A stretch of 64,000 nucleotides of DNA from Alphaproteobacteria bacterium (GTDB lineage Bacteria; Pseudomonadota; Alphaproteobacteria; Sphingomonadales; Sphingomonadaceae): positions 716 through 64,715 of the forward strand of contig JBBCJP010000008.1 of NCBI GenBank assembly GCA_037190625.1, given 5' to 3'. This document shows positions 44,532 through 47,052 of the stretch, piece by piece. Below the pieces are notes generated by a model, which did not search any database, was not told the DNA's origin, and saw only the letters and a program-made list of their open reading frames with translations. The first letter of the stretch is position 1, and the number at the start of each line of letters is the position of its first letter. Both the position numbers and the translations under genes were made by a program.

Positions 44532-44559
44532 TTGTCAGGTCGTCGTGCCCTTGTAATTT
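44532..44559 (+). promoter_or_regulatory. Candidate sigma70 promoter for a leaderless RT transcript
   Basis: TTGTCA-N16-TAATTT, then 6 nt to the ATG at 44566; no clear SD. Confidence 0.4.
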
Positions 44560-44565
44560 GAGAAA

Positions 44566-46038
44566 ATGCAGGCGGATTTCGTTCGTGACGCCCTTTTGCA
44601 GGCGAACTATTTCCCAAATCACAAGGTCAAAAGTAGGGAGATGCCTCCCTGTTTTCATACGAAGCACCTCACTTCGGCAGTAGCAGCGGCTATCGTCGCT
44701 GCTCAGAAGCCCGCACCCGGAAAATATAAGGGCTGCGACTATGCCCAATATACCCTCACCCGTTTCAACGGGGGTCCAAGGGTGTGCGGGATTCCTCACC
44801 CGTATTCCTACTGCGTTCTTGTCGAGAAAATCCATCAGGAATGGGATCGGATAAAGCCGCAACTCATTTCAAGCTCTAGCGCTATCCAACCCAAGCAGCA
44901 TGCAGATGGACGCTTGTTTGTTATGGACTACGGAAATCAGCGAGCAACATCTGCTCGCTACTTGAACAAGCAGGCATCGGCGCGATTCATAGTCAACGCG
45001 GATATCGCGAATTTTTATCCTAGTCTCTACACTCACGCGATTCCTTGGGCAATCGTCGGCATCGACAATGCGAAACAAAATATCAGCGCAAAGAAATGGT
45101 ATAACGCGTTAGATCGGGATATTCGAAACTGCCGCAGAGCTGAAACTAACGGTGTTTCCATTGGCCCCGGCACTTCAAGCCTAGCTGCCGAGATAGTCCT
45201 ATCGCAAATAGATAGGAAGCTAGAGAAACAATTCACATATAATCGCTTCATAGACGATTATACGTGCTACACTCGCTCCAGACAGAGCGCCGAGGACTTT
45301 TTGCGTCAACTAGAGACTGAGCTTGCTAGATACAATCTATATTTGAATTTCCGTAAAACTAGAATTTTTTCAATGCCGGATTCTGAAATACCGCGTTGGA
45401 TTGATCAACTGGCAGTTGATACGCTTCCGAATCAGCCGTCATTCTATCAGACGAAGATTTTTATAAATCGCGCACTCCATCTTTCTGAAGAGTGCCCTGA
45501 CGGAAGTGTCCTCAGATACGCCATACATTCGCTCACTGGAAGAAAATTTGACAAGGGTACCGGAGAATATATTCTCAGAATCTTGCTAAGCCTCGGCCTT
45601 AATCATCCTCATGTGGCTTCTTCCATTGAGCCTTTCCTAGATTATGGATATGATAATGCTGGTAACTTCAAGTACACAACAGAGTTGGTATCACTTGTAG
45701 AATCTTCTGCCCTCGCACGCCGATCGGACGCAATTTGCTGGTCCCTGTGGATGGTGCGGCAAACTGGAAGTGCTCTTCCACTTGGGGTCGAAACTCTGGT
45801 TCTAAAGACATACGATACTTTCGGCCTAGTAGCGCTCTATCAGGTTGCCTCATCTCAAACGCGTCGATCCATTACCTTGTTTGTTAAAAAGCGAGTGCTG
45901 AGCCGTCCGCATTCGGTTGTGGAGAGGAACTGGTTCCTAGTTCATTACCTTCTAAATACAGGCCGACTGGCAGTCGCCGATGTGAACGACGCATCGCTGA
46001 GGGTGTTGAAAGCGCAATCCACCAACCTTTTTGATTGA
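44566..46038 (+). CDS. Stand-alone reverse transcriptase, DRT4 (UG15)-like anti-phage RT, 490 aa
   Basis: RT motifs ADIANFYPSLYTHAIPWA, GVSIGPGTS..AEIVL, RFIDDY, LNFRKT. Family-type segments NYFPN..EMPP, YTLTRFN..PR..GIPHP, QPKQHADGRLFVMDY, PDGSVLRYA and RRSDAICW recalled from DRT4. Many A/T-ending codons. Confidence 0.8.
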   Translation: MQADFVRDALLQANYFPNHKVKSREMPPCFHTKHLTSAVAAAIVAAQKPAPGKYKGCDYAQYTLTRFNGGPRVCGIPHPYSYCVLVEKIHQEWDRIKPQLISSSSAIQPKQHADGRLFVMDYGNQRATSARYLNKQASARFIVNADIANFYPSLYTHAIPWAIVGIDNAKQNISAKKWYNALDRDIRNCRRAETNGVSIGPGTSSLAAEIVLSQIDRKLEKQFTYNRFIDDYTCYTRSRQSAEDFLRQLETELARYNLYLNFRKTRIFSMPDSEIPRWIDQLAVDTLPNQPSFYQTKIFINRALHLSEECPDGSVLRYAIHSLTGRKFDKGTGEYILRILLSLGLNHPHVASSIEPFLDYGYDNAGNFKYTTELVSLVESSALARRSDAICWSLWMVRQTGSALPLGVETLVLKTYDTFGLVALYQVASSQTRRSITLFVKKRVLSRPHSVVERNWFLVHYLLNTGRLAVADVNDASLRVLKAQSTNLFD

Positions 46039-46144
46039 GTCGAAATTTGGGGACTCTGATTGCGGCGCGAATTCCGGGCACACAATACCCAATTCGGATT
46101 ACGGTGACAGTGCACTAAATTAGCGCATTGCTCCCCAATCCTCC

Positions 46145-46446
46145 TCAATCCCGCCAATAGCTTCCCCGCTCCGCGCCGTCGAAACCGGCCGGAGGACATG
46201 CAGTAGCGCTTGAAATCTCTTCCCCGAACCGCATGGGCACGGATCGTCGCGGCCGAGTTTCTCGACCAACTCCTTCTCGCCGCCGCGCAAGAAGCGCAGC
46301 CCGCGCTTCACCCGCGTCTCGCTCGGTAAGCCCCTTCCTTCATTGCGAGCTCGCAGGGCGCGGCAATCCCGATTGCGACGCGACTGGATCGCCACGGCGC
46401 TACGCGCCTCGCGATGACGGACGATAAACCTCGGAACCCGGATCAA
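46145..46446 (-). CDS. SEC-C motif protein, apparently needing two +1 frameshifts; start uncertain
   Basis: PSETRVKRG...[22 protein letters not shown] in frame 0. A +1 shift at TTT-C (46215-46212) gives [10 protein letters not shown], and a second +1 at TTT-C (46184-46181) gives [11 protein letters not shown]-stop (46147-46145). Confidence 0.6.
46339..46419. repeat. Inverted pair of CGTC-type REPs (same family as 27457-27872)
   Basis: TTCATTGCGAGCTCGCAGGGCGCGGCAATCC ... CTGGATCGCCACGGCGCTACGCGCCTCGCGATGACG. Confidence 0.8.
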
Positions 46447-46467
46447 AGTACCACTTTGATCCGCCCC

Positions 46468-47052
46468 TCAGCACCAACCCTCCCGCCGCCCTGTCCACGT
46501 CCGCGCCAGTCCCTCGCTGACCAGCTGGTCGCCCAGGCTGCGTCCGTCGCGGATCACGACGCGCAGCTTGCGGCCATATTGGTCCTCGTCCCGGCCGCTC
46601 GCCAGCGGGTGCAGCTCGATCGGCCCCTGTGCGATCAGCGTCCGCATCCGCGCCGTCGCGCGCCGCGCCAGATCGCTTTCATGGGCGCAGCGCCCGTCCA
46701 TTTCCGGTGTGTCGATATCGGCGATCCGCACCTTCAGCCCACGAAAGCGGAACGTGTCGCCGTCGATCATCCGCACCTCGCCCGGCCGTGCGATCGTCAC
46801 GTCACTGCGCGTCACGCCCGCACCAGCCGCGCCTTGCGGCGCCGGTCCTTGCGTCCAGACCGGCAGGCCGATCAGCGCGATGGCGAGCCCGGCGAAGATG
46901 CCCCCCAGCAAGGTCAGCCGGATTTCGCCCGCGCTGAACCGCCAGCGGCTTCGGCCACGGGCGCGCGCCCGACGCCGGGGACGGTTCCACCGGAAGGCCC
47001 GTCCGGTCGCCTGCCGGCTCCAATCGCGGTTCGGGTCCCAATGCCTGGACAT
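46468..47052 (-). CDS. Thermonuclease (SNase-like) family protein, membrane-anchored
   Basis: IDGDTF, VRIADIDTPE, DQYGRKLR, LVSEGLAR.W; TM segment before the nuclease domain. Confidence 0.9.
   Translation of the reverse strand: MSRHWDPNRDWSRQATGRAFRWNRPRRRARARGRSRWRFSAGEIRLTLLGGIFAGLAIALIGLPVWTQGPAPQGAAGAGVTRSDVTIARPGEVRMIDGDTFRFRGLKVRIADIDTPEMDGRCAHESDLARRATARMRTLIAQGPIELHPLASGRDEDQYGRKLRVVIRDGRSLGDQLVSEGLARTWTGRREGWC

Follow-up and report, generated by a model that had tools for sequence, protein, structure and literature searches.

A truncated SEC-C gene with two UUU-C sites, the probable relic of a widespread family with serial +1 frameshift sites

Locus and reading frames of the SEC-C remnant

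The window analysed here, the whole 64,000-nt stretch of a contig from a member of the Sphingomonadaceae, carries on its minus strand the remnant of a short gene for a SEC-C protein, which lies between a REP-like hairpin element and a low-GC island (40-54% GC, about 44550-46130) filling the interval from the stop codon of nrdB to the stop codon of the remnant (Table 1). The island contains the gene of the single-gene defence reverse transcriptase Drt4 (DRT type 4). Homology to related genomes ends at the stop codon of the remnant, where the island abuts; relatives carry at this spot other variable DNA or a gene for a 131-aa protein, and in view of such variable content, the DNA downstream of nrdB seems to be a hot spot for insertions. 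On the opposite side, further upstream of the REP-like hairpin, an 11-bp-stem palindrome follows directly after the stop codon of the SNase gene. An Rfam search of positions 45800-46800 (evalue mode) returned no RNA family, and a promoter and terminator scan revealed no promoter-like site near the remnant.

Frame 0 of the minus strand reads into the zinc knuckle (...CPCGSGKRF) up to the first TTT-C and continues past it as QALLHVLRP..., a sequence without similarity to anything. When one base is skipped at this TTT-C and another at the second one, 31 nt away, the composite reading passes through two further frames before it reaches a TGA. These frame readings, together with the coordinates and the spacing of both TTT-C sites on which the original prediction was built, were reproduced in our analysis. 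The assignment to SEC-C also held, as the window copy scored 25.2 bits unshifted and 25.8 bits shifted against Pfam SEC-C (PF02810), both values being above the gathering score of 20.4 bits. The claim that the first shift completes the metal site was correct only in part: the shift does supply a cysteine, but where the family has F/K-R-C-C (the slash marking the shift) the window has K-R-Y-C, and one ligand position is lost. In terms of the four-ligand arrangement C-x-C ... C-[C/H], the window reads CPCGSGKRF/KRYC with Tyr as the third ligand. The C-C pair is invariant in the family alignments, TGY TGY being present at this position in all other loci listed.

Further features of the family are retained in the window, namely UUU_CAA_R within the knuckle and UUU_CGA_Y before the DG tail, both at the family codon positions (designated below as sites 2 and 3), and the C-terminal DG.ER.(D)YWR(D) tail, which ends at the stop codon in the third frame. 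At both sites the P-site UUU is followed by a pyrimidine (UUU_C), as in frameshift sites of the UUU_Y type, and a rare AGA codon stands directly 5' of the UUU of site 2.

Table 1. Position of the SEC-C remnant, its segments and neighbouring elements in the window
Feature	Position	Strand	Basis
Remnant of the putatively recoded mini SEC-C gene, 3' two-thirds only	46145..46333	-	blastn, alignment with orthologs
Segment B' (frame 0, codons 46332 to 46213), first half of zinc knuckle, ends in UUU of the first retained site	46213..46332	-	minus-strand translation
Family site 2, UUU_CAA_G (TTT-C 46215-46212), read UUU (46215-46213) then AAG, C46212 skipped	46209..46215	-	sequence
Segment C (+1 frame, 46211 to 46182, 10 residues), second half of zinc knuckle	46182..46211	-	translation, family pN/pS
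TAC (Tyr) at the first Cys of the CC ligand pair	46203..46205	-	alignments
Family site 3, UUU_CGA_C, read UUU (46184-46182) then GAC, C46181 skipped	46178..46184	-	sequence
Segment D (+2 frame), 11 residues (46180 to 46148) and TGA stop (46147-46145)	46145..46180	-	translation, family pN/pS
REP-like dispersed hairpin element, about 85 nt	46337..46425	-	blastn, fold, alignment
Palindrome GGATCAAAGTGGTACTTTGATCC	46437..46463		
Drt4 (DRT type 4) gene	44566..46038	+	PADLOC, E 2e-137

Intact relatives, conservation of the sites and selection in the shifted frames

In a DNA search of 40 related genomes, positions 46333-46144 were matched in seven genomes of the same genus (blastn), the homology to intact orthologs running from 46333 to the stop codon, and the region upstream of 46333 matched dispersed repeats only. 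Three-frame translation of the same-genus loci revealed both TTT-C sites at the same codons and a third site further upstream, preceded by a strong Shine-Dalgarno sequence (SD) and ATG. The intact gene is laid out as GGAGG-N6-ATG, MARKHISDDLPCF, UUU_CGA_G, 48 residues, UUU_CAA_G, KRCCLDGGRF, UUU_CGA_C and DGAERQDYWR with the stop codon, its N-terminal peptide beginning with SD-ATG-M.. and ending with ..DLPCF at site 1. The shift at site 2 restores a perfect SEC-C knuckle, and the three +1 steps return the reading to the frame of the ATG. Read through the shifts, an intact relative scores 34.1 bits against Pfam SEC-C over 16 of the 19 profile positions. Therefore, the two-site gene initially described has two real sites but is incomplete, as its intact relatives possess a third, upstream UUU_CGA_G and the N-terminal peptide, both lost in the window.

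The three-site layout with SD and ATG was detected in eight same-genus genomes and about 20 further species. Cultured isolates that come into question as carriers of an intact three-site gene are Sphingomonas oligophenolica JCM 12082, Sphingobium aquiterrae DSM 106441 and Novosphingobium fluoreni DSM 27568, the UUU_UGA type being represented by Massilia pinisoli JCM 31316. UUU_CAA occupies site 2 in 24 of 25 three-site loci and is directly preceded by AGA in 12 of them, while the other Phe codons of these 25 genes are TTC in 27 cases vs TTT in 6. The zero frame meets a stop codon no more than 8 codons from site 1 in 62 of 76 loci, partly via a conserved CGT-AAG spelling TAA; in the 25 three-site loci it is the rare CGT with the AAG within KRRKG that produces TAA 8 codons past site 1.

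The Nei-Gojobori pN/pS ratio, calculated per segment in all three frames for the 25 loci with the full three-site layout (these were picked by a site-requiring pattern and their pairs are non-independent, neither of which can yield a frame-specific synonymous excess), was in the proposed frame 0.42 for the N-terminal peptide, 0.20 for segment B, 0.39 for segment C (1.7 in the other two frames) and 0.20 for segment D, the wrong frames of the four segments giving 0.9-3.5 and containing stop codons. Third-position entropy in these loci was highest in the proposed frame for every segment, so that purifying selection is seen in four successive frames. Since the same sites occur in independent genomes and purifying selection on each segment is confined to its own frame, the UUU-C sites are not random lesions. 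A conserved site with selection on both sides in different frames was found for the family (25 and 77 loci), not for the window lineage alone. The comparative evidence thus makes recoding in the family well supported.

The same evidence bears on two simpler explanations. According to the first, the window contains an ordinary pseudogene, i.e., a once-continuous SEC-C gene with two unrelated 1-nt insertions and no programmed recoding; each site indeed resembles an in-frame TTC with one extra T, and the window copy is otherwise damaged. We consider this very improbable, as the same insertions are found at the same codons in dozens of species, with SD and ATG intact and every shifted frame under purifying selection; that all these loci are copies of one recently spread dead element is argued against by the pS of 0.4-0.7 between the three-site loci. 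In comparison with an ordinary frameshifted pseudogene, the window copy is similar in having lost its 5' end and a ligand Cys, being probably dead, but differs in that both frame changes are ancestral and selected and are not the killing lesions. According to the second explanation, the sites are assembly or sequencing errors at short T runs, the chance of which is negligible: T3 is not an error-prone homopolymer, and the sites are found unchanged in independent assemblies that different projects produced with different technologies.

Homologs that are continuous and carry the same residues in frame (proteins P0018, P0036, P0045, P0084, P0103 and loci L023, L027, L041, L051) have sequences such as GS.RKFKNCCL.. 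and ..GRYDGSLRNHYF followed by the stop codon, with the DG..R..Y[FW] tail in frame in L027, L041 and L051. These in-frame relatives possess TTC AAG at site 2 and TAY, TTC or TTT followed by GAY at site 3, and the shifted sites equal the in-frame versions with one extra T (TTC AAG to TTT C AAG; TTC/TAC GAC to TTT C GAC or TTT T GAC). Alignment of the homologous loci, with TTT-C kept at both sites, purifying selection in the shifted frames, the same codon positions in independent assemblies and the same residues in continuous homologs, bears out the original proposal of conserved recoding. The homologs mentioned there with an unshifted RFQ.LL..LRP tail do exist as well (P0004, P0013, P0038, P0057, P0062, P0064).

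About 800 proteins were matched in a protein search with the composite sequence, and a scan of one genome per GTDB species gave at least 592 loci; among the matches listed were Sphingomonadales, other Alphaproteobacteria, Burkholderiales, Planctomycetes, Verrucomicrobia, Acidobacteria, Cyanobacteria, Deinococcales and others. Within the genus the distribution is patchy (11 of 61 genomes). Of the best 120 proteins in the database, 9 run without a break through both site 2 and site 3, and another 29 through site 2 only (most of them stop exactly at the Phe of site 3, the rest enter a wrong frame); the remaining 83 are, by the pattern used, not continuous through the knuckle. Annotation pipelines either overlook the gene or label its product a 'SEC-C domain' or 'hypothetical' protein, 60-110 aa long and with a tail in the wrong frame. 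An origin as a phage gene was rejected, the phage and plasmid collections searched having yielded almost only generic SEC-C motif matches.

The number of shifts required varies between the members. In 77 species loci the states of sites 1, 2 and 3 were +1,+1,+1 in 20-22, +1,0,+1 in 33 and +1,+1,0 in 8, and 3 loci had no +1 shift at all. Among the 57 loci with a +1 shift at site 3, TTTCGAY (27) and TTTTGAY (24) prevail, CTGTGAT (2) and CTTTGAT (1, L044) being rarer; UUU_UGA_Y is found at sites 1 or 3 in many members outside the sphingomonads. Site 1 of several planctomycete members (L043, L050, L076, L081, L092, L093, L096) is a T7 run (TTTTTTTCGAG), and their N-terminal peptide M..FDEQPFF is in a frame that needs +2 or -1 to join the main frame, which could be achieved either by two back-to-back +1 slips (UUU_U, then UUU_C), by one -1 slip or by polymerase slippage.

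Probable decay of the window copy

Alignment of the window copy with eight orthologs demonstrated that its homology starts inside the most conserved motif of the family, the window reading ..E-G-R-G-L-PSE vs SKRRKGFPSE: only G-L-PSE is left (with F replaced by L), the SKRRK codons are gone and 4 nt are missing at the junction. The place where intact relatives have the SD, the ATG, the N-terminal peptide, site 1 and the EVTSKRRK codons is occupied by the REP-like hairpin. With this hairpin and the palindrome in position there is no room for the SD, the ATG, the N-terminal peptide and site 1, and neither SD with ATG nor the ..(D)LPCF peptide with UUU_CGA_G is present in the window copy. The REP-like element is predicted to fold into a long hairpin (dG -42.5 kcal/mol) and is present in six copies in its own genome and in many places in genomes G000, G003, G015, G021 and G026; in some relatives (G015, G026, G038) its copies number dozens. 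The palindrome upstream of it recurs as exact copies of 26-27 nt elsewhere in the genus (e.g., L007/L111, about 1660-1700), and the SEC-C gene of G009 is disrupted by a similar inserted palindrome with a CAAAGTG.TACTTTG core (CCCCGCAAAGTGATACTTTGCGGGG). These palindromes may represent a tiny mobile palindromic element.

The gene neighbourhood identifies the remnant as the positional ortholog of the intact genes: in G012 and L032 the gene and nrdB are arranged tail-to-tail, DUF2200 (91% identical) is directly upstream of it in G075, SNase is upstream in G060, and lipase_3 lies beyond in G017. The gene is single-copy in its own genome, the assembly being 95% complete, so that an intact paralog could be missing from it. 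The codon differences between the window copy and G075 comprise 7 synonymous and 8 non-synonymous ones, the corresponding ratios among intact copies being 12:5, 13:6 and 13:4; the non-synonymous excess, which rests on 15 codons, is suggestive of decay. Two of the ten relatives that possess the gene also have a broken copy, that of G009 being interrupted by a 39-nt palindromic insert with TAG inside CPC and that of G060 having foreign DNA in place of its 3' half.

Nevertheless, the composite frame of the retained 189 nt is free of stop codons and further indels and keeps both sites intact, so that any decay must be recent unless this part remains under constraint. One could accordingly imagine a copy that still works, starting at GTG 46311-46309 or at TTG 46446 (through the REP element) and yielding, after two +1 shifts, an N-terminally truncated SEC-C protein with three Cys ligands. 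Besides the clean composite frame with its two intact sites, the 90.5% nucleotide identity to the intact G075 copy and the open reading frame from TTG 46446 would agree with this possibility, which we regard as unlikely: the SD, the ATG, the conserved N-terminal peptide and the invariant SKRRK are lost, relatives use the GTG as an ordinary Val codon, the promoter scan found no candidate, an invariant ligand Cys is replaced by Tyr, and the independent disruption of the gene in two other members of the genus indicates that its loss is common. For the same reasons (missing SD, start codon and SKRRK motif, Cys-to-Tyr replacement at a ligand) the window copy is probably not a working switch. With good probability, the window copy is a recently inactivated relic.

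Taking the window and its relatives together, we consider it probable that the TTT-C sites of the window are inherited programmed +1 sites of a widespread unnamed family, and that the window copy is a positional ortholog which is probably non-functional. The proper annotation of the feature would then be a disrupted copy of a recoded gene, and neither an ordinary pseudogene with two lesions nor an active switch.

Putative mechanism, known recoding systems and possible role

The family would consist of genes of about 80 codons for a basic SEC-C zinc-knuckle protein, in which a strong SD and its ATG start the translation of a short N-terminal peptide with ..D-L-P-C-F at its end, and the full protein would be made only with +1 moves at UUU_CGA_G, UUU_CAA_G and UUU_CGA_C. 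[quoted passage not shown] The genome of the window organism is compatible with such a scheme: UUU is used 3.0 times per 1000 codons vs 31 for the other Phe codon, CGA 3.8, CAA 4.2 and AGA 0.86 times; it encodes one tRNA-Phe GAA with no extra Phe-like tRNA, and one tRNA-Arg ACG with no tRNA-Arg UCG, leaving CGA to be read by inosine wobble. CGA and CAA are thus rare zero-frame A-site codons and are probably slowly decoded ones.

Several results weaken the slippage model. No SD-like stimulator was found upstream of the three sites, the anti-SD duplex energies in the 25 loci being no better than background; GGAGG or GGGGG occurs 3-4 nt upstream of site 3 in a few members only (L002, L032, L044, L057, L092). 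In the search for a conserved RNA stimulator in the 25 three-site genes, the RNAalifold consensus, which included one possible GUCGAG/UUCGAC helix touching site 3, reached -10.5 kcal/mol with z = -2.75 vs column shuffles, which is weak and unconvincing. Avoidance of UUU_CGA or UUU_CAA throughout the genome of the window organism was not seen (UUU_CGA was observed 11 times vs 6.9 expected, in a crude ORF set); hence efficient shifting need not follow from the heptamer alone, and very little product could then result from three serial shifts.

Given that no ribosomal stimulator was found, and that T6 or T7 runs at site 1 of planctomycete members make polymerase slippage conceivable, recoding could be real but proceed by another route than P-site slippage of tRNA-Phe, namely RNA editing, transcriptional realignment or quadruplet reading of UUUC/UUUU. 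We judge these routes quite improbable. The sphingomonad runs comprise only three T, fewer than transcriptional slippage is known to need; a single, ordinary tRNA-Phe is encoded in the window genome; a dedicated tRNA or editing enzyme would need to be as widely spread as the layout, which occurs in many phyla; and the zero-frame A-site codons are consistently slow ones or stops (CGA, CAA, UGA), which is relevant to a ribosomal mechanism only. P-site slippage is therefore retained as the putative mechanism.

For cellular genes of bacteria, the known examples of programmed +1 frameshifting are mainly prfB and a small number of cases with a single site. In prfB, encoding release factor 2, it occurs at CUU_UGA_C with an SD-like element 3 nt upstream (cassette AGGGGG-UAU-CUU_UGA_C). 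The SEC-C family resembles prfB as a cellular bacterial gene with a +1 shift at which the P-site tRNA can re-pair on an overlapping codon while the A site is slow, and also in having GAY (Asp) as the first +1-frame codon at site 3. The likeness is closest in the UUU_UGA_Y members and in L044 (about 1680-1700), where site 3 reads GGAGG-CUAC-CUU_UGA_U, with GGAGG 4 nt upstream, and gives ..GGYL/DGVNRDHYF, close to the prfB cassette in an unrelated gene. Unlike prfB, the window copy and its relatives have sense codons (CAA, CGA) and not UGA in the A site of the zero frame; the family has two or three obligatory serial sites within about 80 codons without a conserved SD-like stimulator, and its product is not a release factor, with no autoregulatory logic being evident. 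In Euplotes, +1 frameshifting at AAA_UAA/UAG takes place genome-wide, with stop codons as shift signals. Several obligatory +1 shifts for one protein are common to both cases, but here they concern a single gene family in otherwise ordinary bacteria and mostly sense codons.

As to the tetranucleotide itself, UUU_Y is an established +1-prone sequence, reviewed for influenza A PA-X (UCC_UUU_CGU), for YopN-TyeA of Yersinia and for UUU-pyrimidine sites of E. coli (PMC5009743). With the family these sites share a pyrimidine after the UUU, a rare Arg codon of the CGN type in the A site and the ability of tRNA-Phe to move to UUC, but they are single low-efficiency sites giving a minor extra product. 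The family, in contrast, has no full-length protein unless the frame is shifted, and its sites are serial and conserved across phyla. In our search of the literature outside subscription journals, no description of a multi-frameshift SEC-C gene was encountered. Slippage at UUU_Y, an A site with a hungry codon or a stop, and the SEC-C knuckle are each known singly; we could not find a description of their combination, that is, two or three obligatory serial +1 shifts in a cellular gene of about 80 codons, spread across phyla and interchangeable with in-frame versions. Such a gene would represent a new recoding layout and a test bed for UUU_Y slippage.

The protein shares the knuckle GR(N/D)DPCPCGSGK(K/R)(F/Y)K.C(C/H) with the C-terminal metal-binding domain of SecA and with the SEC-C of YchJ/YecA, the family profile matching the PDB chains 1SX0, 1OZB and 9L6B (SecA, YchJ/YecA-type SEC-C) with E-values from 8e-9 to 3e-6. 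The resemblance to solved structures is confined to the knuckle of the SecA and YchJ metal-binding domains; the family differs from these in that its knuckle belongs to a stand-alone protein of about 80 aa, together with an N-terminal region of basic character (SKRRKGFPSET.VKRG) and a tail of the form DG..R..Y[FW]. Neither Pfam nor NCBIfam has a model that spans the whole protein. AlphaFold2 predicted for an unshifted homolog a beta-hairpin packed on the knuckle at a moderate pLDDT of 65, and Foldseek found no structural match of this model in the PDB.

A universal neighbour gene was not found, the synteny (nrdB, DUF2200, the 131-aa protein, argJ/trxA) being lineage-specific. tRNA genes lie within 1.5 kb of the gene in 10 of 60 loci, where at most about 6% would be expected (estimate from 49 tRNA genes in 2.74 Mb), and in L034, L068, L063, L041 and L049 (also L037, L044 and L046) the gene is co-oriented among 3-13 tRNA genes within 3 kb. 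Judging from these positions in the genomes, the proximity suggests a link to translation or tRNA biology. SecA-like zinc/iron knuckles are of a kind known to bind ribosomes. We tentatively propose, as an idea with no more than a modest chance of being correct, that the intact family serves as a steep translational gauge, the basic SecA-like knuckle product of which would act on the translation or tRNA machinery. If so, with two or three independent slips the output would increase approximately with the second or third power of whatever global factor promotes slippage, candidates being under-modified or scarce tRNAs, slow decoding of CGA/CAA and, in the UGA variants, low RF2. The position of the gene in several phyla, co-oriented within large tRNA arrays, would be compatible with such a role. 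The three alternative products and the sensor of tRNA-Phe, stress or metal that had been envisaged earlier found no further backing: the site layout is what speaks for them, and the sensor roles are speculation.

The loci within tRNA arrays belong to Burkholderiales, Planctomycetes and Verrucomicrobia, and the arrays of L034 and L068 include adjacent tRNA-Phe GAA and tRNA-Arg ACG. The 131-aa protein (MYVRFITPWWRLPRGTDCGLFGPAYA...), which has no Pfam match and is absent from the window, adjoins the SEC-C gene, on either side, in about 10 alphaproteobacterial loci (L004 at 1035-1427 on the minus strand; also L005, L021, L022, L024, L035, L078, L090, L104 and L108).
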